Virus record (IMG/VR): IMGVR_UViG_3300027644_000013
Coordinates: 1-59,554 of that record
Length of the DNA stretch: 59,554 bases
Reading direction: 5' to 3' (one strand)
Source: a virus
Lineage: Duplodnaviria; Caudoviricetes
Shown one piece after another: positions 10,087 to 42,837 of the stretch. Positions within the stretch are counted from its first letter, which is position 1. The number at the start of each line of letters is the position of its first letter. The position numbers and the translations under genes were made by a program. The notes under the pieces are model-generated. The model saw only the letters and a list, made by a program, of their open reading frames with translations, had not been told where the DNA came from and did not search any database.

Positions 10087-13000
10087 ATGGGATTGCCCAG
10101 CGAGCTGAATCCCTCGGTACGCCCTAACCGCATCCAAGGAACTGCTTTTGCTGGCCCCGAACCAGACGAAGCAGACAAATTGTTGGCTCGGGTTCGCCAG
10201 AAGCGACAAGAGGAACAAGAAGCAAAAAACCAAAAGCCCGCCCCTGCCCCGACATACATTTCAAGAAGCGATGCCAACAAACTCAACCAGATCGCTAAAC
10301 AAGAAGCGAAGGCCTCGGAAGATCGCTCCAACGCCCAGACCGAACGCACCCTAGATACCGCTGGCGTAAGACATCGACAAGTAGCTGGTGGAGGAGTTGA
10401 GCCAAAGGTTACGTCCGATAACAAAGGAATGCCGACTCTGGAATGGGGATCTGGGGAAACTCCAAACGAATTAGGCGGGACGACTAAATACGACGAGTTT
10501 GGAAGCCCAATCAATAAGCCCGAAGTTCCAGTCCAAATTAAGACAGGGAATAAAGATTACGGCGAAGATCCAAACGCAATCTACCGAGTCCCCATGGGCA
10601 AACAAGTGGAGGGAGCAACCCCAGAGCGTGACGCAACCCGCAAATCCAAGAGGATCGGAAGTATCGATGAATTGGTAGACTCGGATGACGAGGCCATTCG
10701 CACGATTGCTAGGGATGAGAGAACAGGCAGAGACAACAAGATTTACGGCGAGGCATTCAGAGGCCTAAAGGCAACCGAGGACGAACTAAGGGCAGGCATT
10801 GGAGATCTTAAAAGCCAGATGGAGACAGCGAAAAACAGCCCGCCGCCTCCCATATCCGAGAAAGCAACCGATGAGGAAAGGGCTGAATACGCCAAAAAAA
10901 TAGCGGATGAAGAACTAGCCCGCACAAAGGAGTTAAATGAAAAAGAATCGCAACTCGCGAAACACAAAATGCTCCAAGCGGAACTTGCGAAGCAAAAAGA
11001 AAAAGAAGCAACCTTCAATGCCCTCATGCAAAGAGGTCAAGACGTTCGCAAGCAAGGCATTGTCAAAGCTGACGGCACCAAGTCAAACGACCCCAAGGAT
11101 GATCCGATATATAGAGAGCTACAAAAGTCAGCATCGTCCCTCAATTTAGGAAATCTCGACCCAGACGCCCCTGCCCTTCCCAAGGCTCTCGAGGGCATGA
11201 TCCCATCCGTAGTTAACGGAATGATGATTGGCCTACCAGAATCCGAAGAAGCAAAAGGAGTACGGAAAGAGGCGGAACAAGCCAAGAAATCAGTCGATGC
11301 AAATCTCGAGAACCGCAAACAGAAGCTTGCCGAATACACCGACGAAATTAAAAAGCCCGCCGTCAACGCTAGGGCTGTATGGACTCTGTTGCGGAAAAAG
11401 ACAGATCTAGCCATCGCCCAGCACAACTCCCTAATCGAGTCGGGTGCTTCACAAGATGAAATTGACGCATCCAGCAGGGCTATTGATGTCCTTGAGGCCG
11501 ACCTCAAAGGAAAATTGCCAAGCGTCATTATGAGCAACCAGTCCCTCGAATCAGCCCAGTCTCTCGAAAAAGATGCTATTGAAAGTGCCAAACAAGAGGC
11601 TGAAAGCCAAAAGGCCAAGGTTGACTATGAGGCCAACAAGACCGCTGGAGCTGTTAATCAGAGGAAATACCTAACTGGCGAAGCAGTAAAGCCAAAGCCA
11701 GCGAATATCAGTCCAGAAGCTCCAACGGACTCGCTGATGGACATGGCAAAGAACAAAGAGATCCCCACTAGAGTTGCCATCGAGGCCAGCAAGGAGATCA
11801 AGGCAAAGCAAAAAGAGGCAAGCAAGTACAAGGACTCCGACTTTTATCCAGATGTATTGAACACCATCAAGCAAGCGATCAAGGGATCTATTCGATTCAA
11901 CCAAGACCAAGCCAGCGGGTTCTACGCATTAGTCGGACGCCAGCTCGGAGGTAGCGGTGGAGAGTTCTTCCTTAACGCATCTCAAGCGGCCAAAGAGAAT
12001 CGGGATTGGTTCGACCAGACATTCCCTACTGATGACGATTTTAACGCAAGCATAGTTGGCGGTGTCATTAAGGGCATTTCAGAGCTTCCAGCCCAGATGA
12101 TGACGTATGCGGCCGCCGCTCCGCTTGGCGGAGTAGGATCTGTGGCCGTTGGGTATCTGGGGAATGTTTCCTCTCTTTATGCCGAGGCACTCGCTGACCA
12201 AGAAGAAGCCCAGAAAAAGACTGGAATAGCATTAACCCCTAGCCAGAGCCACGTCGCCGCCTTGATGTACGCCCTGCCCTCTGCGGGGATTGATACAATT
12301 TCAGACAAATTAACATTGGGCTTGGGCAAGAAGCTCGGCCTAACGAAGCTCCCAGCGGCCCAAGCTAGAAACCTTTTAGCCAAATATACCTTGGCGGGGG
12401 CAAAGTATCTGTGGCCGTCAGTTAAGGGTGGTGCTGTAGAAGGCGTTACCGAAGGACTCCAGCAAAGGTGGCTCAATCAAATAGCCAAGGAGATTGCCGA
12501 CTACGACCCAGCCAGAGATCCAAACGGCGAAGTGGCACGGAGCATTATTATCGCCGCAATTACTGGAGGTTTCGCAGTTCAAGCAACAGCGGGTGGAGAG
12601 AAGGTTGTAAGGTTTGCAGATGAATACATCGCAAAGATCGGTGCAACTGATGAGGCACAAGAAGGGGCATCATTTGAGCTTCAAAAAGCCACGACAGACA
12701 TTGAACCAGGAGGATGGGAGGCTTGGACAAACAGCCAAGGATTTGGATCCCCTTCTGATGTTGTCCTCAACGCAAGGCCATTAGCTGAGAGCGAACCAGA
12801 ACCAGAAGCCCTCAAGCCCGCAAACAGGCTTATCAATATCGGCAACAAGCTGGATTCGCTCAAGGAGAACGCCGACGAGATGGAGTACTTCGCAGTAAGA
12901 GCGCACGTTGCTGAAACAATCTCTGCATTGGCAAAAGCCCAAAACAACACTCGTAATGAGATCAGCCAGCTATCTGACGTCCCTGCATCCAAAAGTGAAT

Positions 13001-16000
13001 TGAGCCAGAGAGAGGCGGCAAAAGCGGCCTCCTACATCATTACTGGAGGCCAGATAACCGAGGAGATGGGGTCTTACAAGATCAAGGGAATGCCGATCTT
13101 CCAGACACGAGAAGACGGAGCGACGATCCTAAATCCAAGTTTTGCCGAAGATTTCTTTAAGAACGTCCCCTCAATCGTCGATTACGAAAACATCAAGAGC
13201 ATAATCCCCGCCATTGAGGCAAGGGTTGAAGCACTTGGGATGCCAGCTACGGAAGGATCCTCAGACGAACCAGAAAAGGTTGAGAAGCCCCTTCTCGAAA
13301 ACACTCCAACTAAGCTACTCCAAAGGGTTGGCAACAAACTGGCTGGCACAACATCAAACGAAAGAATGCAGTCTGCCAAAGAGAAAACCGCTGAACTTGC
13401 TAAAGGCTTATCGGTGGACGGAATTAAGGTCGGGTACGAGGAAGGTGCAATCACAGGGCAAGTATCCGCAATGCAAGTCACCCCCAATGAAGACGGATCT
13501 CTCACACTAAGATTAGATCCAAATCAGTTTGCCCTACAGGATTCCATAGACCCAGAGGTGAACAACAGGGCTTTTGGCGAGGAGATCCTACACGTTGGGG
13601 ACTTCGCCTCTGCCTACATTGAGGCAAAAGCCCTCGGCCTAAAACCAGAGGAATACCAACCCTATCACGCAAAACGAAGGGGCGAACTTTTTAACAAGAT
13701 TTTGGAGGTAGGCAAAAGTGACACAAATGTAGCAACTGCGCTCGTCTCCTCCATTTCCTTATACGACCCAAATATGCCGACCTCTATGAGCATGGAGGAA
13801 ATATCGGACTACGTCGGTGGAAGCACGGCAAGGACTGTGCAAGTGATGGGCGAGATGCTCCGTCAGCTAGGCCAGATCGAAGGCAAGTCTGGGCTTACCG
13901 AAAGCAGAATCGATTTAAGGCTTTCAGCCCAAGGCAAAGACACAACCACGATGGAGAAGGTAACAACTGGAGAGAGCATTCGAGATCTAATCAATTCCAT
14001 CAAGAAGTACATCATGTCGGTGTACAAAGCCTTGAGTCGGATGCGTAAGGCTCTTTCTAGCGCAAACCCCCAAGTCGGAGCAGAGCTGGATGATACCCTA
14101 AACAAGATACAAGATGTTCTTAAAGGCAAGAAGGTGGACTGGACTGGACTTGGAGTTCCATCCGCATCGGTTACAGGGCAAAGGTCTGGTGGCCTAGTTC
14201 AACCCAACCTTCCCTCGACTGGAGCAAATCCTAGACCTACAACAGCCCCTGCCCCAGAGCCTCCCGCACCTCCCGCACCTCCCGCACCTCCCGCACCTCC
14301 AGCTCCCCCAGCTCCGCCCGCTCCGCCAGCTCCGCCCGCTCCGCCTGTCCCCCCAGCCCCAACTACAAATGGACTACCAAAACTCCCAAGCTACCTAGCG
14401 GGAGCAAAACCCCGCTATGGGATCGGATCTAATCTATTTCAACTGAGCTTTAACAACGATATCGACAAGGCTCTTTATATCATCGCCCAGCGTAATCCGA
14501 GCCAAAGAGACGCCGATTATTTGAAGTTCGTTATGGATGCGACAGGCATGAATGAAGCCGAAGCAAGACAAGCTGGACAAGATTTTCGTGGGGTAATCAA
14601 AAGCAACGTAATGGATGTGTTGCTGAATCCAGAAAGTGAACATTTCTTGGACGAAAACGGAGCAGTAATCATAGATCCATCAGAAGTGGCAAAGAAGATG
14701 ATGGGCGAAAACAAGCTCGCACCGACACCCAAGAAGAATACGATCAAGGCATTCACGCAGGGCTTTACTGGGTCAACAGTTATCGGGACGCCCAAAATCA
14801 TCGAGGCCACCGAGGCCAAGGACATGGAAGGCACGGACATCCAGCCAAGAAACCGAAAAGATCGAAAGGCGTACAAAGAACTTATCGAAACAATGGCTCG
14901 CAACTGGGATCCAGACAAAGCGATGCCAGGGACTTCAACTGGAGACGGCGCACCCATCCTTACTGCTGAAAACAAAATCGTAAGCGGTCACGGACGAATC
15001 AAGGCAATGATTGAAATGTTCCGTCGCTACCCAGAGCGGGCGGCCGCCTATCGAGCCAAGCTGATGGAGGTTTTCCCAGAAATGGCAGACCAGATCAGAA
15101 ATATGAAGATGCCGATTGTGATTACGGAGATGGATCTAATGGCGAGCTTTGAAGAGTCCAACAAGACGGCAACTGGGTTGGGCGTCAACAAAACGCCAGA
15201 GCAGTTCTTGAGGCGACTAGCCGTAAGGGCAAACGCTGGAACTTTAGCCACAGAGGAGCTTGCGGTTGCGGATGCTCGTGAAATACAGGACAACCCAGAA
15301 CTCCGAGATATCAAGCAAAACGAAAACGGAGATCTATCGGAAACCCCCGATAATGTGGCGATTCAGCAGAAGTTCTTTGAGATATTCGGATCACCACAGC
15401 AGTACAGGAACAACGACGAGACCTTCACAAAGTCCTTCAAGGATCGAGTAACCTCTGCCCTTCTCGCTGATGCGATTGCCAGCTCCAATAACGGCAAGAT
15501 TACAGACTCCGAAAAGATCATCATTTCCGCCATTACCGACCCAGAGAACAGCAACGCTGGGGTAAAGACTTTGGCCGCCGCCCTAACGAAATCAGTTACC
15601 CGACTTGTTTCATTACGGCAGATAGCCACAGAGGTTCTGGGTGCAGAAAAAGCATCCCAGCTCGACCCGCTTGTTCCGATTGCCAAGTCACTACAGGCCT
15701 ACCTAGAAGCCAAGAGGTCTGGCGGAGAAAACACTCCAAAAGATTGGCAGTCGTTCGTTGAGAACAATCGAAGCCAGATCCCTGGACTTGCGGAAAATAT
15801 CCTCGACCAGACTTCCGCCGATGTCTTCCAGCCTATTTACGATTTCAGAGATTCCAGCGCAAAGCTCTCCAGCTACTTAAACAATCTGGCGGCAGAGCTG
15901 GAAGCCAAGATCCAAGACCTCAAGGACATGGGCGGTACGGACATATTTGGCGAACCTGTACCCATTGCATCAGAAGAAACATTTGGACAAACAATTCAAA

Positions 16001-19000
16001 GTGCCGCCCAGAAGGCAGTCGAGAAGACCCTCGCTAAAACCAGATTAAGCTCCAGAGGCCTCCCTGCCCCAGATCCTCGTGAAGAGCAGATCGACAAAGA
16101 CCAAGAAAAGTCCGATCTACAAGAGAGTTGGAATCCAATAGGAGAAGAAGAATCCAAGAAGATAGATGGCTACTACTCTTTAGGCCTATCATCCCCCGCC
16201 AACCTCGCACCAGAACAGCGTTTTGCGTTTGACGAGCTTGTTAAAGAAGTCGGCCCAATCCCGCAGTACGTCTCAAAGACTTTGGGAATTCCTTTAGACA
16301 AGATTTTCAAACGGGATGACGGCGAGGAACGGCTTTCAGCAGAAGCCTTAGAGACCATCGCCCTTGCCATCAATCAGATTGATAAAGGCAAAAGCGTTAT
16401 TATTGGACACGAGATGGGCGTTGGTAAGGGTCGCCCAGTAGGGGCGCTTATCTTTACTTACGCCGCAAAGAAGGGCCTTATCCCAGTTTTTGTGACTAAA
16501 TCAGAGCCTCTGTATGTAGCAATGATGGACGATATTGAGGACGTCGGATTTGAAGGGCAGATCAAGCCTCTCATCACAAATAACAACTGGAGTTCGATGC
16601 GTAGCAAGGGTCGCCCAGTTACGATGAAGAACCCGATCCAGAAGCTCCGACTTGCCGCACAGAGCGGGAAATTGCCCAGCGAACATAACGCAATCTTTAC
16701 TACCTACGCCCAGATCAGCTCTTCAGCCAAAAAGGATGTTATCCCCGCCCTTAATGCAATCGCAGACAGAGCAATCTTCATTCTCGACGAAAGCCATACT
16801 GCGGCGGGAACAGACAGCTCTATCGGCGAATTCTTTAGAAGTGTAATTCCGAGATCACGAGGAGCGGTGTTCTCTTCGGCAACGGCTATCAAAAGCCCCG
16901 CCAACATCGCCACCTACTTCCCCAAGACCAGCATCCCAATGGCTGTACCTACCGCAAGCGAGTTTGAGAGACTCGCCAAGCGGTTCGGCAATCCATTTAT
17001 GCAGATGACCAGCAGTATGCTGGCTCGGGCTGGGCAGATGTTCCGACTCCAGAGTGGATTTACTTGGAAGGGACAGAAGATCCCCTTCATTCCAACACCA
17101 ATCAAAGCCAAGCAAGAGGTCATTGATGCCCATAACGCCGCAAATGAAATCCTCGGCGAAATGAGGCAGATCGAGATCGGCGAAAAGATGAAGAAGTTGA
17201 CCGAACAGCTTGTAGTAGATGCACAGGAAGAATATGAAGGCACGACAGCAAAAGCTCTTATCTATCCTCTTTCTGGGCAATTCCATAATGTCGCCGCCAA
17301 TATGGTTCTAGGGGCAAAAATCATGGACACAGCAGACCTAGCCGAAGCCGAGATCAAAGCAGGGCGGAAGGCTTTCATATCACTAGATACCACAGGAGAG
17401 ACATTCCTTCGTGATGCCAGAGAGATTATGGAGGGCGGAACCCTTCAAAACTACGACAAGAAATCCAAGGTCACGTTTAAGGACTTCATGGAGCGGTACG
17501 CAAGGAAGCTCAACACAAACAAGGTCAAGATCGAGCCAGCGGATGAAAAGAGCAATGCCCCAGCCCTTGAATTCACGATTGATTGGAACAAGACCAACGG
17601 CAAGTCCAGAATTCCTAGCTGGGTAAGCCAAAAGTCCATCGAGCTTCACGACTCCTTAATGGAGACTGGCTTCAAGGATCTAGCCCTAATCATCAAAGAC
17701 AACGCCGAGACCCTCAATAAGCTCCCGATCAGCCCATTTGATGCCTTGCGTGCAGAACTACAGAGACGGCAAATCTTGAGTGGCGAAATATCGGGTCGAG
17801 ACATTGTAGTCACCCCGTCTGGCGAATTTGCCCAGAGATCTATGACCGACCAAGACAAGCAGAATGCTTTGCTAGGATTTAGGAATAGCGAAAACCTCAG
17901 AGCCTTGGTAGTTGGGCGTCCAGCATCAACAGGGATGTCGGCTCAAGACGATCCCAGAAATAAAGTTGCGGCTCCAAGAACCCACATCGTTATGCAACCA
18001 GCGGCCGACATTACGGATACGCTTCAAATGCTTGGCAGAACAAACCGCAACAGCCAGCAGAGCCTCCCGAAGCTCATCTACATCTATAGCGAAGACATCC
18101 CTGCCGAAGCTCGGATCATGGCGATGACCCAGAAGAAGATGCGCCGTCTTGGTGCGTCCACGACTGGTAAAGACGCAACGGCCGCTGGCGAAAACCTTGG
18201 GCTGGATATGCTCAATACCTACGGAGACAACGCCGTAGCCCTTGTGCTGGCGAACGAGCCAGAGCTACGAACGGCTTATAACACCAGAGCTGGGACGAAC
18301 TTCCCCGAGAAGTTTGAGGATATCCGAAGGATCCTAACTTCTGGTGAGCCAGGGGATGGAATGCGGAGGATGATTCACAAGGCATTGATCTTGGATATCG
18401 AGGATCAGAGGCATTTCTTCGAGGAAATCACAGCCGAGTACGTTGCGATGGTCGACTTCGCCAAGCAGAACGGAACCTACGAGCTGGAATCACAAGAAAA
18501 AGATTACAAGGCCGAGAAGTTGTCCGACGAAAAGGCTTGGGATGCGTATGGAGTGGCGAGTTCGGACAAAACATTGCCACCAAAGAATGCAGACAAGTTT
18601 TACTTCTACTTAAACAAGGGGGACGATTTTGATTTGGGGGAAATCAACTCAGTGGGGCCTGTAACCCTAAGAGAGCTGGCTAAACGACAACTTGAGAGCG
18701 GCGAATCTCTTGAAGGAATAACGAAGGACACGATTGTCTCAAGCAATGAAAACATGGACTCATGGACACCGCTCAACGAGTTTCTTAGGGATAATCCAAG
18801 CGCGAATGAAGAGAAGTCTGGTGAAGACGCATTTGCCAAGCCCGCCCGCATCGCCAAATACCGATTCAATAACCCGACCCCTCCTCCGACCTCGGCAGAG
18901 GTAATCCCGACCCTCGAACAGGCCAAACAACAGGCCGAAACAGCCGTATCAGACTTCTTAAAAGCCAGCGACTCTGTCCTAAAGGACAAGCTGGCCCGTA

Positions 19001-22000
19001 TTTCAAGCAACCCACGGATGGAGCAACTGGCGAAGGTAAGGGCTTTGGAGAAATCTCGGAAGCAGTACGCCCAGACCAAGAACAATGTGGAACGAGCCTT
19101 AGACCTAGTCGGCAAGGGAGCTTGGTTTGGCAAAGATACAAAGCAGATCCCTGCCTATGTCGTAGGTGTTGAGCTAAACAACCGCTTCCCTCACGCCGAA
19201 AGTCGGCAGTACCTAGTCATCCAAACCTCTGGGTTCGAGAACAAGATCCGAATCCCTCTACAGGCATCGGAACTCGCTCACGTCAATCCCTTCAAGATTT
19301 CTTTAGACAAATCACCCATTGGCGAAAACGAAGCCCCTACTCGCGACCCAAGCGTAGACCCACTAAGTTTGCCAGTTGGCATTTATCGCAACACGGACGG
19401 ATCTGGTCTGGTCGTTTTTATGCGCGGGTCTCGCCGTGTAGACGTGGACAATCTTCCCCCAGAACAACTGCGAGAGGTTAATGCAGTTGCATACGAGATG
19501 GCGGTTCAGATGCACGAGAGCGGAATGGAAGAATCTGAGATCGAGAACCGAGTATTCAACGAGGCAATCAACAAGGTGCTTACTACTGGAGATAACGCCT
19601 TAGATCCAGATTCTTGGAATAGATACGTTGAGGAAAAGATGCCTGAAAGCCGTAAGGGTGACGGATTCGGCAAGACCTACGATAGATCAAGGCAGAATGC
19701 GACCCAGAGAGACCAGTTTGTGGTCGAGGGCAATCTCCTCACAGGGGCGAATTTCGTTTCCTCTATGTTCGGGGCTAATGTCCCAGCGGCGGTCACCACC
19801 TTCACAACCAAGGATGGTGGCAAGACAACTGGCGTAGTGATGCCCGCTGGGGTCAACTCCGACAACCTAATAAACCTCAAGGCAGAAGTAGCTAAAGGCC
19901 AAGGATCCCTGCTTGGCCCTGTCGGCAAGGTAATGGACAACATTATCGACGAGGAAGGCAGACCTCGGTCTGTAGTGTTCAGCGATGGGTCAATGATCTC
20001 TGGGCAAAGCCTCTACATCCCAGACAAAGCATTCCTCGATGACAAGAATGAGGGTTACAGGAAAGAGGCATTAGACAACAGCAACGCCATCGCAACGATG
20101 ATCGTGGCTAAAATCAATCAAGGACATGATGCTTGGATGTATCGAGGACCAAAGAATGGGTTCTCGCTACGCTCAAGGGGTCTACGTCGTGAGGCTGGTC
20201 AAGGCCGAGCCAAAGAACAAATAGTCGAAGGATTCTTGACCGACGATAACGCAAAAGACTTCGCACCAGAGGGAGTCATCGGAAGAAACATTCGCTACAA
20301 GGCGATGAAGGCATCGGATGACGGATGGCTTGAGGCTGGAAACTTAGGCGAGGACGAGATCTACGAGAACCTATACGACTACGCAATCGCCCTACAGGCA
20401 CAGATTAACGAGCGTCACGGCCAAAACACCAAGGGCGAACTGATCGAGAACGTCCCTAACTTCATCCTGTCTGCCGTAGATAACCGCATTAAGCAGATGC
20501 AAGAAGAGGCCAAGAGCCGTGAGACAATCTCTAAAGATGCTCCGATAAGCGGGACATTCAACGAAGAGGGCGATGTCGAACAAGAAGAAGCCTCGGTGGG
20601 CGATTACATGGCTCAGAAAGAAGCTCCAGAATCCAACAAGGAACTCTACGACAAGCTCGAAAAGGTACTGGCCTCGCTGGCCGATTCCGACAGGAAGATC
20701 TTTATGATGTATGTCAGCGGGGCGAGCTATCAGCAGATCTCCGAGACCCCCGAAGCCTACAAATCTAGGAACGTGGGCAACCTCATTGGCGAAGTCGCTC
20801 CAGACAGATCTTGGACGTTTAAGCATATCCAAAGCCTCAAAGGCCAGCTCGCCAAGTATGCAAATTTCCTAGGGATCGAAGCTCCCAACGCAAAAGAAGA
20901 GCCTACCGAAGCCAGCCCGATGGAAGGCTTTAAGGCTATTGAAGAAAGCAAGGGTCAGATGACCCTGTTCTCTCGCGGTCTGGTGAGCTACTTGGACAAG
21001 AACGCTGGAAATAGCGTCCTGTTTAGGGATCTCCTCACAGCCGTTGCGAACGAGCCAGACGCACTACCAAGCCAGAGAGCCTTGGCTAAACTGCTTACTA
21101 CGCCAAACACCAAGCAAAGCATGATGACCGCTGGGCTATATGTGCCAGCCGAAATCAATCCAGATCCGAGCTTTGTAAGGTCGTACTACAAGCCAGCTAA
21201 AGAAGGCAACGGAATGGTTGTGTTGAGTCTTAATGGGATCAAAAACAGCGGTGAACCGATTGAAACAACGATTCACGAATACAAGCACGTTCTGACTCAC
21301 AACCTTTTAGTCAAAGAAGGAATCGGCACAGCCACAGGCAAGAAGGAGCTGGATAGACTTGTCGAGTACGCAAACCGCCCAGATATCGAGATGGATGCAG
21401 AAGGTAATCCCCTGCCCTTGGCAAGCGGAAGCAAGGGCGGATACAAACCACTCAAAGCTCTGATTAAGGCCTATTTGGCGGCCGTCAACGCATCCAAAGA
21501 TAACGCTGGCAACCCTGTGGCAGACGCTGTTTTCGGGACTGGATTGGCATCTACCTACGATGTGACCCTGCACATGGCCCCATACGAATGGGCTATTGGA
21601 CAGGATGGGATCCACATGAAAGCCGAGATCACCAGCGAGAACACCTTCCCTCTCCTCAAGTACCTCAAAAATCGAGGGCTGGAAGGAACTCGCCCAATGG
21701 GCAGAAACTCTGGAATGAGCCTTGTCGCCTCGAAGGGATCTCCAGATTTTGTGTTTTTGAACCAGACGGATGAAGAGGCATTGGGCGGAATGGAAACAAG
21801 CGGAGTGCAAAACACGACCCTTGTTCTAACCCCAAGCGGTATTGAGAAACTCCGCCAGCAAGACCTAGAACCCCTCTTCTACGCATCCTACAAGGTTCGT
21901 GCGACAGCCCCGATGTTCCGAACAAAGGTCACAGACATCCAGACTGACCCGCAGAAGGTTCGCTCGATCTACTACGGCCTTGGAAACATTCACGAATTCG

Positions 22001-25000
22001 TTACCGAAATGTACAGCGACAATCGTTTCCAAACCGAGATGGCATCGATACCAGGGCAAGCTGGAATTGAGATCAACGGAAACCTCAAAGAGTACATGCA
22101 AGCCTTGGCCGCCGAGCTTCCGCAAGAAGCTAGGAACGCAATGATGCAGAACTCGGCAATCAAGCCGACCATTCTGACCCAAGGGCAATCGGCCGCCTTG
22201 GAACTATCCAGCCAGCCATTCGACTTTATGAAGATGGTTGAGAATCTCCGCCAAGGGAACGTCGAGAAAAAGCTCGAACAGGCCACTCTGTTCTCTCGTG
22301 GAATCAAGATTCAAGACAAAGACAGGAACAACATTGATGTCCTAAAGAGCAAGCTCCTCCAGCTCCACAGAAAGAAGCACGGATCCTACCAGAAGGAGGA
22401 CGATGGTTATTATCGGCCAATTCCCCCACAGCAGTTATCCTCTCAAGAAGAGACTCTTTACACAATGCTGATGGACAAGGCTCGTGCGGAAAAGTGGCCT
22501 GGAATCGCTTTCCAATCAGACCTTATGGATGTTGAGACAACCACAAGGCCAGAGAATCTTGTCCTAGAACAGCAGTCGGCAGTCCCAGAAGTGGAAGCTC
22601 CAAAAATGGAGCAACTCTCCTTGTTCTCACGAGGGCTAATGGAATCTGTGTCTACCGCTCTGAATGAAAATTACCCCGCATCCGCGGCTATGGGCGTTAT
22701 GGATCGCAGGCCTTCGAATCCTAGGAACGAGATAAAGGCGCAAGCCTTAAAGGACTTTATTGAGAACGCAATGCTCCCAGAGTCATTTGAAATTAAATAC
22801 AAAGGCAAAGGATTAAATCCAACTCAGCTTCGCATTGAGTACCTCAAGCAAAATCCAGAAGCATTAAGGCGAATGCTTTATAAGGAGAGAGGCAAAAACC
22901 CTAGCAGTAAGCTCTTTTCACGAGGCCTACCAGCAGACCCAGCAGACCCGATGAACAACGGAGACCAACAAGCCCCGCTGAATGACCTACTGGCTTCATT
23001 CTTGGGTGCGTCTGGGAACATCATTACCGACGAAGAAATTGACGCCACCTACCAAAGGGCATCCGAAGAGAACGCCCCTTTTGAAGTCGGCGCACCCTAT
23101 GTAGGCCAAGATGTCCGTAGTGCTGGCCCATTCGCAAACGATCAGTTCCGTGATGTGCAAAGGGTAGCCAGAGAACTACGCAGACCCATTGATACAGTTG
23201 AGACTGACGCATCTGTTTTGGCGGCCGCCCGAGCCTTGGTCGCTACTCATAAGGCACAACTTTACGAGGATCTCCTTGAAGGGACTCTTGAGACATCGGC
23301 AACGAATCAAGCGGCGGTCTACCTAGCCCTTGCCGAGGATGCAAAGAACGCCAAGACACCAGAGGAACTCCGTGAAATTGCGATTCTCACAATGGCTAAC
23401 GATATCCAGAGGACAAATCTGGCTCGTGCAATGCGGATCGGGCGTGACAGCCAGATGACCCCAGAAGAGCGGAATCGGTCATTCTTCAATGCGGAACTCT
23501 ACAGAAGAAGCCCAGATTCTAACGAGCTGTACAGGAACGCCATCTCAAGAACGCTCAAAACGAGGTCGATTGCTTCCAACGAAGAGCAGATCCGCCTCCT
23601 CCAAGCCGAGCTAGACTTAGCAAGAAGCCAAGCTGGAGAAGCCTTTGAAGCAAACGAACAATGGCAGAAGTGGGGAGCGTATATGGAGGGACGGATTAAA
23701 GAGTTCCAAGACGCCAATCAGCTCTGGGCAGATCAGTTGGATAAATACCAAGTCCTAGAACAGGAATCCGCAAGGAAGATCGAGGCCTTACAGGCAGAGC
23801 TGGCAAAGGCAAATACCAGCCTCGAGCAGATGGATTGGGAGACAGCCCAGCTCAAGATCCGTGAGAGTAAATCAGCTCAAGACGTGCTGGATACTGTCCA
23901 AATGTCTGCAAATGATGCCGAAGCGATCCGACTCGTTATGGCTGGGATGGTTCCGATGGCGGCCGCTAAACAAGCTGGGATCAAGCCAGCCAGAGTGATG
24001 CAGTTGATGAAATCTCTTGAGACAAACACAAAGCAGAGGTTTGACCAAGTAGCTGGAGAGCTTGCGACCCAAGGGATCACACGAAGCCAGCTAAAAGCGA
24101 AGTTGACCGCATTTGCCAACGGAGCATCCCTGCGGTCTAGGGGTATCGAAGCCAACCAAGAAGAGGCTCCCCTCACCAAGGAAGAGATTTTGGCAGAGAT
24201 CGTGTCAGCTATGGGATTCGACTACGCAGGGCAGTCCGATACTTCTGGTAAGGCCGATTGGCACAATGTTGACGGCAAAAGCTCTCTGTTTGATTGGAGA
24301 AAGCCAAGCAACATCGGAGTTGCAATGCAGATGGTTCGTAGGTCGCAGGGCAAACAGGCCAGCGTTGGAGACGCAGTATTTGAAGCTCACGTTGCCCTTC
24401 TGGTATCCAGCACCTCGACCCAGCTCGCCAACATCGTAAAGACCCCCTTTGTTGCCACCAACCCCTTCTATCGAATGGTAGAGGCTGGGATGTCCTACCT
24501 TATGGGCAAGGCTGGGCTAAATGTAAGGCTTCCAGATGGCACGATTGGCAATCCATACGCCAGCGTGTCTGATGTAGTCAACGGAGCTACCGAGGAAGCG
24601 AAACTCGGATTTAAGGCGATGATGCCCTCAATTATGAACGGACTGCAGTACGCACGCTTGGCATTCAACACCGAAAAGCCTTTCTATAATATCGACCATA
24701 CCGATGCGACCCTTCTGGATGAAGGCGATCAGAAGTTCTATGAGAACGATCCCAAGATCCCTGGACCCCTTGGAAAGAAGATCCGCTTGCCCCTGCGAGC
24801 CTTGTTGGCCGCCGACGAGTTTGCCAAATCATTCACAGCTCAAACCCTTGTAGGATCTATCGCATTCAGAATGGCAAGGGCGAAGGGCCTCAAAGGCCAA
24901 GAGATTGTCGACTACGTGACAAACCAAGTGAACGAGTTTGGGTCTGACTCTTGGAAGATTGCGGTTGAGCGGTCTTCTCGTGAAACTCTTAACGAGGATG

Positions 25001-26409
25001 TAGCGGATAACAAGGATGAGCCATTTACATTCAAGAGACTCGGTAAGGCCGCCCCTCGAGCATTGAACAAGCTTAGCAAAGGCATCTCTGATCTTACCCA
25101 AAGCATCGAGAGCTGGGGCTATGACCCTAATAATGGAGCAAGGGCTGTCACCGCTCCTGTGGCCTTTACTGGGTCAATGGGTCTCCAAGTTCTTCGAGGC
25201 CTTACCCTGTTCGCCAGAATCTCCTACAATGTGCTGGCTCGTGGACTTGCCTTCACCCCTATCGGCCTCGCCGACTCAGCAATCGGAGCAATGAATTCCA
25301 TTAAGAAAAACAGAGAAGGCCAGAGGTTTATGGATCTGAGCAACTACGAGAACTCCGTAGCTGGGCTTACCGAGGGAGCGATTGGAACAGCAATTCTGAT
25401 GGCTCTGTTCAGAAGCATGGAAGGTGACAAGGATGACGATAAGAAGTTCCTGTTGATTACTGGCCCAGCCAAGGATGCTGATACTGCTGGAAGGACAACT
25501 AGGTACGGAAACAGATCCTATATGATCCGAGTTGGCGACAATGAGTTCGATATCAGCAGAATCGAGCCTCTTACATCGACCATGGCATTTGGAGTTGCCC
25601 TTTCAACCGCAGTAAAAGACGCAGTTAATCGTGGAGGTGGAATTGATGTATCCAAGAACCTATTCCTAGATTTTGGAAGAATCCTATCCCAGAAGACATT
25701 CGGAGGACAGCTACGGACAGGAAAGACCTTATTGAAGGGCGATTTGGCAGATCCATTGATTGATTTTGCGTCTGTGTTTACAGCCCCTCCATTAGCCAGA
25801 GGACTAGCGGAATCGTCGAAGGACTATGTATCCAGAACTAAATCGGAAGAGGCCACTATATTCAACAAGGACAGAATGCTGTCGAAGTTCGCCCCTGCTG
25901 TCGGAGCATACCCTTCAGCTACTGGTTACAGGACTCCATACGCTTACGACTATGAAGGCAAGAAGGTTGTTAAGCCGTTCACAGAGATCTTGCCCAACAA
26001 CACGGCTGGCAAGGTTGCAAAGTTCGCACTTAGGAATCTCTCCCCTGTCGCCGTCTACAAAAAGAAGCCAGCCTCCAAGCTCAATAGGTTTGTCGAATCG
26101 TACAACAGGCAACAGATCTCAACAGATGGGAAGACTTGGGTTCTTAACTCACCCAGAGCCGAGATCACAGATCCCTACAGCAAAAAGAAGGTTAGGTTGA
26201 CCCTGCGGGAACAGGAGACACTCAACTCCATCGTCCAGCCCCAGCTCCAAGCCTTGTTTGAGGTCAACATAACAGAGGCCGATATCGCCAACCCAACCGA
26301 CAAAAAGAAGCAAAGAATCCAGAATCTAGCTTCCCAGCTACGCAATAAATACGAGGAACAGATTATCAGACAGCGATATGCGATGGGCGACGCAAAGCAG
26401 ACAAAGTAG
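10087..26409 (+). CDS. 5440-aa large polyvalent (DarB-like) internal virion protein: ParB-like, strawberry-notch SF2 helicase, sigma-like and HExxH peptidase modules
   Basis: IQPRNR...GAPIL...VSGHGR (ParB-like); GHEMGVGKGR, ILDESH, FSSAT, QMLGRTNR (SBNO helicase); LASLADSDRKIFMMYVSGASYQQIS (sigma region 4-like); HEYKH plus HEFVTE (zincin). Confidence 0.85.
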   Translation: MGLPSELNPSVRPNRIQGTAFAGPEPDEADKLLARVRQKRQEEQEAKNQKPAPAPTYISRSDANKLNQIAKQEAKASEDRSNAQTERTLDTAGVRHRQVAGGGVEPKVTSDNKGMPTLEWGSGETPNELGGTTKYDEFGSPINKPEVPVQIKTGNKDYGEDPNAIYRVPMGKQVEGATPERDATRKSKRIGSIDELVDSDDEAIRTIARDERTGRDNKIYGEAFRGLKATEDELRAGIGDLKSQMETAKNSPPPPISEKATDEERAEYAKKIADEELARTKELNEKESQLAKHKMLQAELAKQKEKEATFNALMQRGQDVRKQGIVKADGTKSNDPKDDPIYRELQKSASSLNLGNLDPDAPALPKALEGMIPSVVNGMMIGLPESEEAKGVRKEAEQAKKSVDANLENRKQKLAEYTDEIKKPAVNARAVWTLLRKKTDLAIAQHNSLIESGASQDEIDASSRAIDVLEADLKGKLPSVIMSNQSLESAQSLEKDAIESAKQEAESQKAKVDYEANKTAGAVNQRKYLTGEAVKPKPANISPEAPTDSLMDMAKNKEIPTRVAIEASKEIKAKQKEASKYKDSDFYPDVLNTIKQAIKGSIRFNQDQASGFYALVGRQLGGSGGEFFLNASQAAKENRDWFDQTFPTDDDFNASIVGGVIKGISELPAQMMTYAAAAPLGGVGSVAVGYLGNVSSLYAEALADQEEAQKKTGIALTPSQSHVAALMYALPSAGIDTISDKLTLGLGKKLGLTKLPAAQARNLLAKYTLAGAKYLWPSVKGGAVEGVTEGLQQRWLNQIAKEIADYDPARDPNGEVARSIIIAAITGGFAVQATAGGEKVVRFADEYIAKIGATDEAQEGASFELQKATTDIEPGGWEAWTNSQGFGSPSDVVLNARPLAESEPEPEALKPANRLINIGNKLDSLKENADEMEYFAVRAHVAETISALAKAQNNTRNEISQLSDVPASKSELSQREAAKAASYIITGGQITEEMGSYKIKGMPIFQTREDGATILNPSFAEDFFKNVPSIVDYENIKSIIPAIEARVEALGMPATEGSSDEPEKVEKPLLENTPTKLLQRVGNKLAGTTSNERMQSAKEKTAELAKGLSVDGIKVGYEEGAITGQVSAMQVTPNEDGSLTLRLDPNQFALQDSIDPEVNNRAFGEEILHVGDFASAYIEAKALGLKPEEYQPYHAKRRGELFNKILEVGKSDTNVATALVSSISLYDPNMPTSMSMEEISDYVGGSTARTVQVMGEMLRQLGQIEGKSGLTESRIDLRLSAQGKDTTTMEKVTTGESIRDLINSIKKYIMSVYKALSRMRKALSSANPQVGAELDDTLNKIQDVLKGKKVDWTGLGVPSASVTGQRSGGLVQPNLPSTGANPRPTTAPAPEPPAPPAPPAPPAPPAPPAPPAPPAPPAPPVPPAPTTNGLPKLPSYLAGAKPRYGIGSNLFQLSFNNDIDKALYIIAQRNPSQRDADYLKFVMDATGMNEAEARQAGQDFRGVIKSNVMDVLLNPESEHFLDENGAVIIDPSEVAKKMMGENKLAPTPKKNTIKAFTQGFTGSTVIGTPKIIEATEAKDMEGTDIQPRNRKDRKAYKELIETMARNWDPDKAMPGTSTGDGAPILTAENKIVSGHGRIKAMIEMFRRYPERAAAYRAKLMEVFPEMADQIRNMKMPIVITEMDLMASFEESNKTATGLGVNKTPEQFLRRLAVRANAGTLATEELAVADAREIQDNPELRDIKQNENGDLSETPDNVAIQQKFFEIFGSPQQYRNNDETFTKSFKDRVTSALLADAIASSNNGKITDSEKIIISAITDPENSNAGVKTLAAALTKSVTRLVSLRQIATEVLGAEKASQLDPLVPIAKSLQAYLEAKRSGGENTPKDWQSFVENNRSQIPGLAENILDQTSADVFQPIYDFRDSSAKLSSYLNNLAAELEAKIQDLKDMGGTDIFGEPVPIASEETFGQTIQSAAQKAVEKTLAKTRLSSRGLPAPDPREEQIDKDQEKSDLQESWNPIGEEESKKIDGYYSLGLSSPANLAPEQRFAFDELVKEVGPIPQYVSKTLGIPLDKIFKRDDGEERLSAEALETIALAINQIDKGKSVIIGHEMGVGKGRPVGALIFTYAAKKGLIPVFVTKSEPLYVAMMDDIEDVGFEGQIKPLITNNNWSSMRSKGRPVTMKNPIQKLRLAAQSGKLPSEHNAIFTTYAQISSSAKKDVIPALNAIADRAIFILDESHTAAGTDSSIGEFFRSVIPRSRGAVFSSATAIKSPANIATYFPKTSIPMAVPTASEFERLAKRFGNPFMQMTSSMLARAGQMFRLQSGFTWKGQKIPFIPTPIKAKQEVIDAHNAANEILGEMRQIEIGEKMKKLTEQLVVDAQEEYEGTTAKALIYPLSGQFHNVAANMVLGAKIMDTADLAEAEIKAGRKAFISLDTTGETFLRDAREIMEGGTLQNYDKKSKVTFKDFMERYARKLNTNKVKIEPADEKSNAPALEFTIDWNKTNGKSRIPSWVSQKSIELHDSLMETGFKDLALIIKDNAETLNKLPISPFDALRAELQRRQILSGEISGRDIVVTPSGEFAQRSMTDQDKQNALLGFRNSENLRALVVGRPASTGMSAQDDPRNKVAAPRTHIVMQPAADITDTLQMLGRTNRNSQQSLPKLIYIYSEDIPAEARIMAMTQKKMRRLGASTTGKDATAAGENLGLDMLNTYGDNAVALVLANEPELRTAYNTRAGTNFPEKFEDIRRILTSGEPGDGMRRMIHKALILDIEDQRHFFEEITAEYVAMVDFAKQNGTYELESQEKDYKAEKLSDEKAWDAYGVASSDKTLPPKNADKFYFYLNKGDDFDLGEINSVGPVTLRELAKRQLESGESLEGITKDTIVSSNENMDSWTPLNEFLRDNPSANEEKSGEDAFAKPARIAKYRFNNPTPPPTSAEVIPTLEQAKQQAETAVSDFLKASDSVLKDKLARISSNPRMEQLAKVRALEKSRKQYAQTKNNVERALDLVGKGAWFGKDTKQIPAYVVGVELNNRFPHAESRQYLVIQTSGFENKIRIPLQASELAHVNPFKISLDKSPIGENEAPTRDPSVDPLSLPVGIYRNTDGSGLVVFMRGSRRVDVDNLPPEQLREVNAVAYEMAVQMHESGMEESEIENRVFNEAINKVLTTGDNALDPDSWNRYVEEKMPESRKGDGFGKTYDRSRQNATQRDQFVVEGNLLTGANFVSSMFGANVPAAVTTFTTKDGGKTTGVVMPAGVNSDNLINLKAEVAKGQGSLLGPVGKVMDNIIDEEGRPRSVVFSDGSMISGQSLYIPDKAFLDDKNEGYRKEALDNSNAIATMIVAKINQGHDAWMYRGPKNGFSLRSRGLRREAGQGRAKEQIVEGFLTDDNAKDFAPEGVIGRNIRYKAMKASDDGWLEAGNLGEDEIYENLYDYAIALQAQINERHGQNTKGELIENVPNFILSAVDNRIKQMQEEAKSRETISKDAPISGTFNEEGDVEQEEASVGDYMAQKEAPESNKELYDKLEKVLASLADSDRKIFMMYVSGASYQQISETPEAYKSRNVGNLIGEVAPDRSWTFKHIQSLKGQLAKYANFLGIEAPNAKEEPTEASPMEGFKAIEESKGQMTLFSRGLVSYLDKNAGNSVLFRDLLTAVANEPDALPSQRALAKLLTTPNTKQSMMTAGLYVPAEINPDPSFVRSYYKPAKEGNGMVVLSLNGIKNSGEPIETTIHEYKHVLTHNLLVKEGIGTATGKKELDRLVEYANRPDIEMDAEGNPLPLASGSKGGYKPLKALIKAYLAAVNASKDNAGNPVADAVFGTGLASTYDVTLHMAPYEWAIGQDGIHMKAEITSENTFPLLKYLKNRGLEGTRPMGRNSGMSLVASKGSPDFVFLNQTDEEALGGMETSGVQNTTLVLTPSGIEKLRQQDLEPLFYASYKVRATAPMFRTKVTDIQTDPQKVRSIYYGLGNIHEFVTEMYSDNRFQTEMASIPGQAGIEINGNLKEYMQALAAELPQEARNAMMQNSAIKPTILTQGQSAALELSSQPFDFMKMVENLRQGNVEKKLEQATLFSRGIKIQDKDRNNIDVLKSKLLQLHRKKHGSYQKEDDGYYRPIPPQQLSSQEETLYTMLMDKARAEKWPGIAFQSDLMDVETTTRPENLVLEQQSAVPEVEAPKMEQLSLFSRGLMESVSTALNENYPASAAMGVMDRRPSNPRNEIKAQALKDFIENAMLPESFEIKYKGKGLNPTQLRIEYLKQNPEALRRMLYKERGKNPSSKLFSRGLPADPADPMNNGDQQAPLNDLLASFLGASGNIITDEEIDATYQRASEENAPFEVGAPYVGQDVRSAGPFANDQFRDVQRVARELRRPIDTVETDASVLAAARALVATHKAQLYEDLLEGTLETSATNQAAVYLALAEDAKNAKTPEELREIAILTMANDIQRTNLARAMRIGRDSQMTPEERNRSFFNAELYRRSPDSNELYRNAISRTLKTRSIASNEEQIRLLQAELDLARSQAGEAFEANEQWQKWGAYMEGRIKEFQDANQLWADQLDKYQVLEQESARKIEALQAELAKANTSLEQMDWETAQLKIRESKSAQDVLDTVQMSANDAEAIRLVMAGMVPMAAAKQAGIKPARVMQLMKSLETNTKQRFDQVAGELATQGITRSQLKAKLTAFANGASLRSRGIEANQEEAPLTKEEILAEIVSAMGFDYAGQSDTSGKADWHNVDGKSSLFDWRKPSNIGVAMQMVRRSQGKQASVGDAVFEAHVALLVSSTSTQLANIVKTPFVATNPFYRMVEAGMSYLMGKAGLNVRLPDGTIGNPYASVSDVVNGATEEAKLGFKAMMPSIMNGLQYARLAFNTEKPFYNIDHTDATLLDEGDQKFYENDPKIPGPLGKKIRLPLRALLAADEFAKSFTAQTLVGSIAFRMARAKGLKGQEIVDYVTNQVNEFGSDSWKIAVERSSRETLNEDVADNKDEPFTFKRLGKAAPRALNKLSKGISDLTQSIESWGYDPNNGARAVTAPVAFTGSMGLQVLRGLTLFARISYNVLARGLAFTPIGLADSAIGAMNSIKKNREGQRFMDLSNYENSVAGLTEGAIGTAILMALFRSMEGDKDDDKKFLLITGPAKDADTAGRTTRYGNRSYMIRVGDNEFDISRIEPLTSTMAFGVALSTAVKDAVNRGGGIDVSKNLFLDFGRILSQKTFGGQLRTGKTLLKGDLADPLIDFASVFTAPPLARGLAESSKDYVSRTKSEEATIFNKDRMLSKFAPAVGAYPSATGYRTPYAYDYEGKKVVKPFTEILPNNTAGKVAKFALRNLSPVAVYKKKPASKLNRFVESYNRQQISTDGKTWVLNSPRAEITDPYSKKKVRLTLREQETLNSIVQPQLQALFEVNITEADIANPTDKKKQRIQNLASQLRNKYEEQIIRQRYAMGDAKQTK
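14248..14360 (+). repeat. (PPA)n proline-rich linker within the giant protein
   Basis: CCTCCCGCA tandem repeats encoding PAPEPPAPPAPP...PVPPAP. Confidence 0.9.
26386..26394. promoter_or_regulatory. TGCG(T/A)CGCA-type site 4
   Basis: GGCGACGCA; centre 26390 is 54 nt before portal ATG 26444. Confidence 0.65.
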
Positions 26410-26443
26410 TCGCACACCTCGCCATTGATGGTTGAAATCGAAT

Positions 26444-28935: not shown

Positions 28936-30193
28936 AGAATTTATCCACGAACTTAACTAGACGAACCTTGTCGTCGGCCAAAACCTTATGGGCGGTGCAT
29001 TTGTCTGAGTGTTGGTTCTGGAGGCAAACTTCCTCATAAGAAGCTGTCCCTGCAATTCTTACTCCGACAAGGAACGTCATAAGCCTAGACCCCTTCTTAT
29101 CCGCAAAAGAGGCCTCCTTAATGAGCGCCTCCGCCAACTCGTCAGATAGCGGATCTTTCATCATAAAGAATATCTGGGAGTGATCGAAAGACGTGGAAAC
29201 AACGGAGGCATCGCAATCCTCGATCCGCCGATCAACATCAAGAACAACCATGGCTACCCCATTTTCGTCAATCGGCTTGCAATTCATAATTCTATGGGAA
29301 AACACTCCAGTTCTAATCACTTTATTTGCCGAGGCTATATCCGTGTAGGCAGGGGAAGAGTGTTTTAGCACCCCATCAGATTCCAAGAAGTTACCGATAT
29401 AGCTTCGATTATTAGGGTCGTACTTTTGAGAGATTGATATGCCAGAAGGCCCCCATATTCTGCTTACAAAATCAGTAGCAATCGAAAGCCCTATTTCTTC
29501 TGGTGAAGATGCAATAATCTCTCCACGAAGCTCGGATTTGTCTAGTCGCATTAACTGGGACTTCAGATCATCCTTAAAAACACTTTTAATCGGAGGGTGG
29601 GTTATGAAGTTGCGTAGCTCTGGAGAGTCGTAATGCTTGATCTTTAGCTTGTTGCAAACCAAGGCTAACGGCCAAGAGTGTGCGCCTTGCCCATTTCTAG
29701 CCACAAACCTTTTTCTTTTGAGCTGAAATTGCTTGTCTGGATTCAAGATAGAAGGACTTAGCAATATCCCCTCGTCCACAATCCTTCGTGCCGTAGCCCG
29801 ATCTAATCCAAAGTACCCCTGCTTGGTCTCCACGGAGTCCGCAGAACCAAGAACATTATGATATCCGTGAATGCCCGCTGGCATGTTTAGCAGAGTCTCC
29901 TCAAGGTTTTCGGCTGGAACACCAAATATGCAATCTGGCTCTACTTTCAGAATATATGTCCCACTCATCCTTAATCCAAGAACCAGCAATTCGTGAAGCG
30001 CAATTCCTCCAGCCAAGTGTAGGTCTTCTTTAGTTTTATGGATAAGGTCTACATACTGCTCAATGTCTTTTGGATGCTGGCAAGCATTCGCAAGAATACC
30101 TATTTTAGAGTTTGGCAGTTTTTCCCTTATTGTCCTAGCTGTCTCGACAGCCAGATCTTTGTCGCCTTCCCATATTTGCATTACAACGATCAT
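28841..30193 (-). CDS. Glycosyltransferase-like (GT-A) N-terminus fused to a RepB-primase-like C-terminus
   Basis: MIVVMQIWEGD...YILKVEPDCIF (DxD-like); C-terminal VVLDVD...VVSTSFDHSQIFF...D...VRIAGT; ATGA coupling at 30193. Confidence 0.5.
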   Translation of the reverse strand: MIVVMQIWEGDKDLAVETARTIREKLPNSKIGILANACQHPKDIEQYVDLIHKTKEDLHLAGGIALHELLVLGLRMSGTYILKVEPDCIFGVPAENLEETLLNMPAGIHGYHNVLGSADSVETKQGYFGLDRATARRIVDEGILLSPSILNPDKQFQLKRKRFVARNGQGAHSWPLALVCNKLKIKHYDSPELRNFITHPPIKSVFKDDLKSQLMRLDKSELRGEIIASSPEEIGLSIATDFVSRIWGPSGISISQKYDPNNRSYIGNFLESDGVLKHSSPAYTDIASANKVIRTGVFSHRIMNCKPIDENGVAMVVLDVDRRIEDCDASVVSTSFDHSQIFFMMKDPLSDELAEALIKEASFADKKGSRLMTFLVGVRIAGTASYEEVCLQNQHSDKCTAHKVLADDKVRLVKFVDKFFTYDEALAVIRGLAESYKVRPPVTEPEPALP

Positions 30194-34055: not shown

Positions 34056-34105
34056 TCCACTAACAAATCTCTTCCGTTCTCGCTCTGAGTCTTTTGGCTT
34101 ATCTA

Positions 34106-42599: not shown

Positions 42600-42837
42600 C
42601 TTTTGGTAGCAGTCGGTAGTGGGGAATCATTCTGCCACTACCATTAGAGATCAGTACTCGGAATGACTTCCTTTCGGCAAGCCCTAGATTCATCAATCTT
42701 GTAACAGCCTTGGATGCGTGGCCGTGGGTCTTGCCTAGCTCCTTGGAGATTTGTTTTATTGTTTTCCAGCCATCTGGGATTGGGCTCACTTTCTCTAATA
42801 AGTGCTTTTGCAGGGCTACTGCCCATTCGCTTTTCAT
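42586..42837 (-). CDS. Small winged-HTH protein
   Basis: GWKTIKQISKELGKTHGHASKAVTRL. Confidence 0.7.
   Translation of the reverse strand: MKSEWAVALQKHLLEKVSPIPDGWKTIKQISKELGKTHGHASKAVTRLMNLGLAERKSFRVLISNGSGRMIPHYRLLPKAKSP

Follow-up and report, generated by a model that had tools for sequence, protein, structure and literature searches.

Polyvalent proteins are common in phages and conjugative elements and raise the question of how one giant protein serves many targets. The same question arises for P0001, a 5,440-aa protein encoded by a giant open reading frame (ORF; 10087..26409, + strand) of the tailed-phage record IMGVR_UViG_3300027644_000013. The window analyzed, 59,554 bp in length, is the whole viral record, with an estimated completeness of 92%, and P0001 takes up 27% of this genome. 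Within P0001, a six-residue peptide, L-x-S-R-G-[LI], recurs between modules with different predicted functions; is this peptide a signal and, if so, what reads it? In the reading that we consider the best explanation of the whole, and to which we give a probability of about one half, these peptides would be processing sites of an ejected polyvalent polyprotein that carries a candidate protease of its own.

Identification of a Junction Motif in P0001

The original prediction had announced seven LxSRG[LI] motifs, and all seven were recovered at their positions in a single ORF, P0001, together with the HEYKH string that lies among them. Numbered from the N-terminus and all on the + strand, the junction sites are LSSRGL (site 1, 16045..16062, aa 1987), which separates the ParB-containing part from the helicase module; LRSRGL (site 2, 20167..20184, aa 3361); LFSRGL (site 3, 20965..20982, aa 3627), at the upstream border of the HExxH module; LFSRGI (site 4, 22288..22305, aa 4068), at the downstream border of the same module; LFSRGL (site 5, 22621..22638, aa 4179); LFSRGL (site 6, 22912..22929, aa 4276); and LRSRGI (site 7, 24130..24147, aa 4682). 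Sites are named below after their first residue. In 5,000 shuffles of P0001 the expected number of copies was 0.014, with a maximum of one, and a second set of 2,000 shuffles gave a mean of 0.011, also with a maximum of one. When the pattern was relaxed to L.[SA]R.[LIVM], eight matches were obtained against 0.84 expected. The sole extra match was a degenerate candidate eighth site, L-N-A-R-P-L, at aa 894-899 (12766..12783, +), which occupies the same alignment column as site 878 of the distant ortholog P0017 (see below). A scan of all stop-to-stop frames of 60 aa or longer in the six reading frames of the window (50,894 aa) gave no L.[SA]RG[LI] outside P0001, and the one relaxed match among the other window proteins is at about chance level.

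The 18-nt strings that encode the motif copies differ in their Leu, Ser, Arg, and Gly codons. Together with the codon drift between strains described below, this bore out a further claim of the prediction, that conservation is at the peptide level. A DNA-level repeat or DNA recombination signal was ruled out, since the codons differ at every copy and drift synonymously. Analysis of the composition around the sites gave a mixed result, with polar flanks at several of them.

Conservation of the Motif and Exchange of Cassettes

Fourteen close relatives of P0001, with 76-98% identity, were found and aligned with it (15 proteins, clade A); each site was counted only in the rows covering it. Sites 3361, 3627, 4068, 4179, and 4276 were kept in 15/15 proteins, site 1987 in 13/13 relatives, and site 4682 in the 14/14 relatives reaching it, and the degenerate site 894 was kept as LNAR[PS][LI] in the 12/12 relatives that cover it. 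Position 3 of site 4068 is Ser in nine proteins and Ala in six. Self-cleavage through a Ser nucleophile was ruled out by these natural Ser-to-Ala sites, and any cleavage would consequently need a catalytic center outside the motif. In P0026, a protein 68% identical to P0001, the last site reads L-R-S-R-S-L, so that Gly at position 5 is not essential. A hand count of the codon table, with five to eight strains, revealed variation at 22 of the 42 motif codon positions and residue changes at only four of the 42 (S/A, L/I, L/M, and F/Y). Judged from these strains, purifying selection acts on the motif peptide.

The stretch that separates the HExxH module from the long-helix module contains small cassettes of 72-112 aa, and the motif stands at the end of every one. 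Family 1 (22306..22620, +; about 111 aa including its C-terminal site) is present in 15/15 clade-A proteins, and family 2 (22639..22911, +; 94-103 aa) occurs as a tandem pair in P0012 and is missing in P0014, where families 3 and 5 take its place. Family 3 (72-73 aa) was found in three proteins at differing positions and family 5 in P0014 only, and the orders observed among the relatives were 1-2, 1-3-2, 1-2-2-3, and 1-3-5. In P0011, P0012, and P0014, additional cassettes have entered precisely at site 4179, so that in these three rows a cassette is flanked by the motif on both sides, and the extra units of P0009 and P0012 are inserted at site 4276, again between motif copies in these two rows. 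These cassette insertions break the alignment within motif copies, after aa 4180 and aa 4278, which indicates that the unit of exchange is a cassette plus its site. The junction motif is real and non-random, is confined to P0001 within the window, and marks cassette borders.

One further protein, P0019 (1,878 aa), called on a 64-kb contig of a relative, begins at the equivalent of aa 3636, nine residues past the first residue of site 3627; the gene may be naturally split at the junction, or the start may be a gene-calling artefact.

Two other strings of similar appearance were noted. VLARGL at aa 5049-5054 (nt 25231-25248) was considered as a ninth site and rejected: it drifts to VLQRGL and VLARGT in relatives, matches in only 6/15 rows (one row being empty), and lies inside a modelled helix of the C-terminal module. 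Separately, an acidic scaffold-like ORF located just upstream of the capsid gene (34094-35074, +) contains L-N-A-R-D-L at aa 304-309 (nt 35003-35020), 22 aa before its C-terminus, with the same LNAR as P0001 aa 894.

Distant Orthologs Carry Their Own Versions of the Motif

An exhaustive HMMER search with aa 3361-4281 against 1.84 billion representatives returned the cluster of P0001 itself and only two others, those of P0016 (5,528 aa) and P0017 (5,655 aa), which are 27-30% identical to P0001 across 4,700-4,900 aligned positions. L-x-S-R-G-[LI] was sought in both proteins and is absent from both. By unsupervised k-mer counting, variant strings were discovered in each of them. P0016 (clade B) contains [LIM]-x-A-Q-R-[ILM] eight times against 0.05 expected; the exact string AQRI occurs seven times in it, and the commonest 4-mer in 2,000 shuffles reached six copies once and seven never. 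P0017 (clade C) contains [ST]-L-x-A-R seven times against 0.37 expected, with a shuffle maximum of four, and has the variant L-x-A-R-x-[LIM]. These variants are retained within their clades, in five clade-B loci and in a second clade-C member. Analogous motifs in homologs had been named as a check on the predicted sites; the motif proved to be kept in close relatives, and the two distant clades have variants of their own.

The three versions align without gaps as a hydrophobic residue, any residue, a small residue, R/R/Q, G/x/R, and a hydrophobic residue. Their positions also correspond. For three of the eight P0001 sites, a site of both other clades lies within 10 alignment columns (random mean 0.005, maximum 1, n = 20,000), and for five of the eight within 45 columns (random mean 0.08, maximum 2). 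Site 4068 falls in the same column as the P0016 and P0017 sites; site 4682 shares its column with the P0017 site and has the P0016 site within three columns; site 3361 shares its column with P0017 site 3492, with P0016 site 3339 lying 28 columns off; and site 1987 is aligned with P0016 sites 1835/1842 and P0017 site 2046. In all three clades the HExxH sequence has a site on either side, at a distance of 103-139 aa upstream and of 323-338 aa downstream. The sites keep their places while their wording changes together in each lineage, and this concerted, clade-specific change at aligned junctions points to one shared reader that would co-evolve with them.

More remote proteins were analyzed with exact and gapped k-mers, with a reduced alphabet and a shuffle null, and with generic patterns. 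No recurrent motif above the null was found by these means in the remoter giants (L018, L019, L030, and L031) or in the T7-like ORFs (L020-L029). The series [IL]-[NDH]-K-[LIVM]-[FY]-[ST] of L030 was discarded as a junction motif because it matches the composition null, and conserved islands were sought between L018 and L031 and none was found.

Modules Separated by the Sites

Searches of Pfam and NCBIfam located a ddrB-ParB domain, an SBNO helicase, and a sigma-like stretch, each of which falls between two consecutive sites. The ddrB-like ParB domain (14788..15129, +; aa 1568-1681) matches PF18763 with an E-value of 8e-16 and 58.7 bits (cut-off 27.6). The Strawberry-notch (SBNO) helicase core (16324..18486, +), inside the module of aa 1993-3360, matches AAA_34 (PF13872; aa 2080-2316, E 1e-7) and Helicase_C_4 (PF13871; aa 2605-2800, E 1.7e-18), both above cut-off. 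Between sites 2 and 3 lies a module resembling sigma-70/extracytoplasmic function factors (20185..20964, +; aa 3367-3626), in which aa 3451-3553 match TIGR02937 with an E-value of 9.5e-7 and 28.6 bits, below the cut-off of 42.9; Sigma70_r4_2 (E 0.0013) and a PHROG sigma factor (E 0.0029) gave further sub-threshold matches. The ParB-like and SBNO helicase modules read from the sequence earlier were therefore recovered above Pfam thresholds, whereas the sigma-like one stayed below threshold in three libraries. Beyond the cassettes, the long-helix (coiled-coil-like) module (22930..24129, +; aa 4282-4681) contains modelled helices at aa 4501-4678, with a predicted local distance difference test score (pLDDT) of 60-77. 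It is followed by the C-terminal module (24148..26406, +; aa 4688-5440), whose one transmembrane-like segment (aa 5090-5108; 25354-25410) is the only such window in P0001.

The sites had also been predicted to fall at domain borders. This was partly supported, by the Pfam domains lying between sites, by the cassette breaks at sites 4179 and 4276, and by the gaps between clades, which are denser around the sites (P ~0.03); the structural models were too poor to add to it. The AlphaFold model of aa 3300-4499 had a mean pLDDT of 35.5 and a second model one of 42.2, probably owing to input alignments of 12 rows. In these low-confidence models, which covered six sites, 3361, 4068, 4276, and 4682 are in coil and 3627 and 4179 in helices; the coil at site 4682 lies between two helices modelled with moderate confidence.

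Some features of the modules themselves were recorded. The transmembrane-like window is followed by an acidic string, EGDKDDDKK, conserved as EGDDDDDKK in P0016 and P0017. Inside the second module, about ten P-A-P/P-P-A repeats (aa 1388-1425; 14248-14361) form a proline linker, and P0017 has a poly-Pro run at the matching place.

The HExxH Module as a Candidate Protease

The module between sites 3627 and 4068 (20983..22287, +; aa 3633-4067) is a candidate zincin. Its HEYKH occupies aa 3730-3734 (nt 21274-21288), and a conserved H-E-F follows at aa 3969-3971. None of the residues H3730, E3731, H3734, and E3970 varies among the three clades; E3970, in H-E-F, is the candidate for the downstream Glu that serves as third ligand in zincins. 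Both HEYKH and H-E-F are found in modelled helices with pLDDT below 50, and the local context of HEYKH looks like a zincin active-site helix. A complex prediction of the HExxH module with a 32-aa junction peptide (aa 4167-4198) gave a score of 0.00, a "no answer" that is not evidence either way. The original prediction took the motifs for protease sites, possibly of an embedded zincin. Its first half was supported in the form of functional junction signals with a common reader; as to the second, the HExxH module is a candidate peptidase with no family match.

Other candidate proteases were looked for in the neighborhood. None of the 30 neighboring ORFs matched a protease PHROG. There is a second HExxH ORF in the window (30190-30786, - strand; 198 aa), with HELAH at aa 36 and a Cys-rich C-terminus, which belongs to no Pfam family. 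Among clade-A strains whose junction motifs are the same, its identity is no more than 54-60%, and no copy of it turned up in the clade-B flanks examined.

Relationship of P0001 to Ejection Proteins

A metagenome scan with the peptidase alignment revealed a 1,826-aa ORF in T7-like phages (L021, 8435-13912). The gene order in L021 is tubular tail, nozzle, gp14-like, gp15-like (glucosaminidase), the 1,826-aa ORF, and TerL, which places this ORF at the gp16 position. Its homology with P0001 covers the second peptidase helix (hhalign E 7e-6) and, in the C-terminal module, some 300 aa (aa 4895-5168; BLASTP E 7e-8). No Pfam family, gp16 included, matched this module, for which the unannotated gp16-position ORF is the sole homology. 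In language-model features the C-terminal module has viral proteins as its nearest neighbors, and the closest named cluster, LPD38, is a lead only. An hhalign comparison of A5 with A6 was circular, as A5 includes two T7-like rows, and was not used.

The P0001 gene is preceded by that for TerL (6807-8552) and then a low-complexity 490-aa ORF (8612-10084), and is followed by the gene for an SU10-type portal (26432-28669). With tail genes on its upstream side and the major capsid gene on the other, its neighborhood is of the late or structural type. From this gene position and the homology with the gp16-position ORF we infer that P0001 is a polyvalent virion or ejection-type protein, located in the virion and entering the cell. 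The same homology makes P0001 look like an ejection protein that accreted effector modules.

Two minor similarities were noted among these proteins. The ORF of L021 contains G-A-R-S-L-D at aa 15-20 (the same ARSLD as P0017 site 878) and A-N-A-R-K-Y-L at aa 104-110, in few copies. A G-P-E-P string near the N-terminus is common to the 490-aa ORF (YGGPEPV) and P0001 (FAGPEPD, within 10087-10180) and is also present in P0016 (FGGPEPE) and P0017 (YRGPEPE); it may be a packaging signal.

Proposed Processing of P0001 and Alternatives

We propose that the giant gene would give rise to a virion-packaged, ejected polyvalent polyprotein composed of an N-terminal module, the ddrB-ParB, SBNO helicase, sigma-like, and HExxH modules, two cassettes, the long-helix module, and a C-terminal, ejection-protein-like anchor. 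The signal joining them would consist of six residues, namely hydrophobic, any, small, an Arg at position 4 or 5, and hydrophobic at position 6, with L-x-[SA]-R-G-[LI] as its clade-A form. Endoproteolysis at these signals would yield the modules as separate fragments, about nine in number and 97 to 1,374 aa long, and the HExxH module would cut its two bracketing sites first and then the others. Zincins usually prefer a hydrophobic residue at P1', and on this basis the cut is guessed to lie just before the Leu or Ile at position 6. We regard it as somewhat probable, from the comparisons above, that the motifs are cleavage sites. The assignment of the embedded HExxH module as the enzyme is possible, and likelier than that of the other candidates, but clearly more tentative. 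The complete scheme, in which a phage protein of about 600 kDa would be cut at eight co-evolving sites by its own metallopeptidase, as in the polyprotein strategy of eukaryotic viruses, is put forward with a little more reserve still. If it is true, the products freed would include a nuclease-like ParB part, a helicase, a sigma factor redirecting host RNA polymerase, a membrane anchor, and small effector cassettes that can replace one another. A sigma-like factor would then be delivered in the virion as part of a polyprotein, and the small cassettes would travel with their own cut site, which would offer a way to evolve or engineer sets of injected effectors. A bolder extension of this scheme, to which we give very little probability, is a cut after Leu-Phe, by which some fragments would end in clamp-binding-like Q-x-x-L-F tails aimed at the host replisome.

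Several observations weigh against processing by an embedded protease. Sites 4068 and 4682 lie in gap-poor, well-aligned stretches, and the model of aa 3300-4499 puts two of its five sites inside helices, albeit with pLDDT below 35. In clade C the motif is less strict and has weaker statistics (seven copies against 0.37-0.69 expected, with shuffle maxima of 4-5). The HExxH module has no match in Pfam (E up to 1) or NCBIfam (E up to 0.1), matches only PHROGs of unknown function, and in a profile search of the PDB gave a best E-value of 0.15, to designed helical repeats. This module also occurs in the 1,826-aa gp16-position T7-like ORFs and in remote giants of 4,700-6,050 aa, in which the motif series was not seen, so it may have a different primary job. 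Finally, N4 vRNAP, ArdC, and TraC1 carry such peptidase domains and yet travel unprocessed, according to the main text of Iyer et al. (2017; PMC5512222), and in the phi24B preprint (bioRxiv 10.64898/2026.04.10.717836) the peptidase of gp47 is read as wall-degrading.

The motifs might instead be uncut docking signals, a possibility that we consider rather unlikely. Each module would then carry a short linear motif bound by one partner, which could be a packaging or ejection component or, for a subset of sites reading Q-x-x-L-F, the host sliding clamp. Three of the seven sites do read QMTLF, QATLF, and QLSLF (aa 3627, 4068, and 4179), with similar strings at some clade-B and clade-C sites, and they resemble the beta-clamp-binding consensus, QL[SD]LF. 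The residues common to all sites (small, Arg, hydrophobic), however, lie outside the clamp motif, and four of the seven sites have no Gln, so that the clamp motif is not found at every copy. More generally, the concerted change in each clade requires a common reader, which is not necessarily a protease, and N4 vRNAP and others are delivered whole, as Iyer et al. (2017; PMC5512222) note in their main text. A single packaging signal would nevertheless suffice for one polypeptide, and yet every cassette keeps its C-terminal copy; moreover, the sites are placed between modules and not at a free end. Should the motif be uncut, a docking signal at every module border would itself be new.

Cleavage at the same sites could also be carried out by a host protease or by a separate phage protein, with the HExxH module serving envelope penetration, for example by acting on wall peptides. 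The presence of the HExxH module in gp16-position T7-like ejection proteins with no detected motif series agrees with this, as do the second HExxH ORF of the window, the possibility that clade-specific motif variants track different hosts, and the wall-degrading role that the preprint gives to the gp47 peptidase (bioRxiv 10.64898/2026.04.10.717836). We find this improbable all the same. No protease was named among the 30 neighboring ORFs, and the HELAH ORF has diverged to 54-60% identity while the junction motifs stayed the same, and was not found in the clade-B flanks examined. The strict motif is absent from the capsid, scaffold, portal, and other frames, unlike in known prohead-protease substrates, and the sites bracket the HExxH module itself in all three clades.

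A passive linker or a scar left by the exchange of cassettes, in either case without a specific reader, would fit the gain and loss of cassettes at the motif and the polar flanks of several sites. It is a poor explanation of the remaining data: the codons differ per copy and drift synonymously, and so do not form a DNA recombination signal, and a linker of this kind would neither fix six positions across 13-15 relatives nor take on, in each distant clade, another consensus common to all junctions.

Comparison With Known Systems

Processing of an embedded-protease polyprotein at repeated sites is well known from eukaryotic viruses, such as picornavirus-like viruses and African swine fever virus (pp220/pp62), and adenovirus protease likewise has a consensus. 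P0001 resembles these polyproteins in being one product with many consensus sites and a candidate protease inside it that is bracketed by sites, and in the covariation of site and enzyme lineage. It differs from them in having no sequence or fold relationship, a metallopeptidase as candidate, and a bacterial host. Two marks of a self-processing polyprotein were found here: a consensus shared between modules, and the covariation of that consensus with the lineage of the embedded candidate enzyme in three clades. In phages, the prohead proteases of head maturation, T4 gp21, phiKZ gp175, and SPN3US gp245, reportedly cut at a short consensus. As in those systems, P0001 would be a packaged protein with a short recurring consensus, the copies here being candidate cut sites. 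Prohead systems, in contrast, have a separate protease that also cuts capsid and scaffold; here no such protease was found among the 30 neighboring ORFs, and the strict motif occurs in P0001 only.

The closest comparison is with the polyvalent proteins defined by Iyer et al. (2017; PMC5512222), who describe ddrB-ParB and SWI2/SNF2 as hub domains, propose that zincin-like peptidase domains process polyvalent proteins into functional units, and cite DdrB of phage P1 as processed. The idea of peptidase-driven processing is therefore already known from that paper, as its main text shows. P0001 likewise joins unrelated effector domains, including ddrB-ParB and SBNO-type SWI2/SNF2 ATPase hubs and an HExxH module, in a late or structural context. 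In contrast with the proteins of the main text, it has an explicit junction motif that co-evolves by clade, an HExxH module outside Pfam, and a length of 5,440 aa with fusion to an ejection-protein-like C-terminus. That main text (PMC5512222; supplements may differ) gives no site motif: its sole use of "cleavage site" is in the title of a reference, and neither "recognition site" nor "linker" is used. The 2017 proposal came without any site and was not directly testable. The junction code described here, with its three co-evolving versions, is the first that is concrete and testable for a polyvalent ejection protein; with the natural site variants (Ser/Ala and Gly/Ser), the cassette swaps, and the roughly nine predicted fragments, it makes the proposal experimentally approachable. 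Literature searches for phage polyproteins with junction sites turned up nothing closer.

Two ejection-related systems were also compared. The phi24B protein gp47 (2,811 aa), a polyvalent protein that was detected in virions and for which a role in ejection is proposed (bioRxiv 10.64898/2026.04.10.717836), is like P0001 very large and equipped with an HExxH or metallopeptidase-type module; LPD38, named in gp47, is the nearest cluster for the P0001 C-terminus, again as a lead only. Unlike for P0001, no processing or junction motif is reported for gp47 in the passages of the preprint considered here, and tblastn with P0001 aa 3361-5440 gave no match in the phage collection. With the T7-like internal core proteins (gp14, gp15, and gp16), P0001 has in common its C-terminal module and the second HExxH helix, both homologous to the gp16-position ORF. 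The 1,826-aa ORF is only a third as long as P0001, lacks the ParB, helicase, and sigma modules, and yielded no motif series.

Relatives and Other Genes of the Record

Cultured relatives were sought by megablast with nt 8000-30000 and by tblastn with aa 3361-5440 against 50,697 phage records, with no match in either case, and a profile scan of genome contigs with the peptidase alignment likewise gave no match. Freshwater samples are among the sources of the contigs of this family. Among the remaining genes of the window, a serine recombinase or invertase is encoded at 433-1098 (+; phrog_125, E 3.5e-48), and a leucine-rich-repeat protein at 4923-6266 (+) adjoins a tail gene. On the opposite strand are a weakly radical-SAM-like ORF (42834-43925, -) and an ORF assigned to phrog_3704, "ferredoxin" (44197-44826, -).

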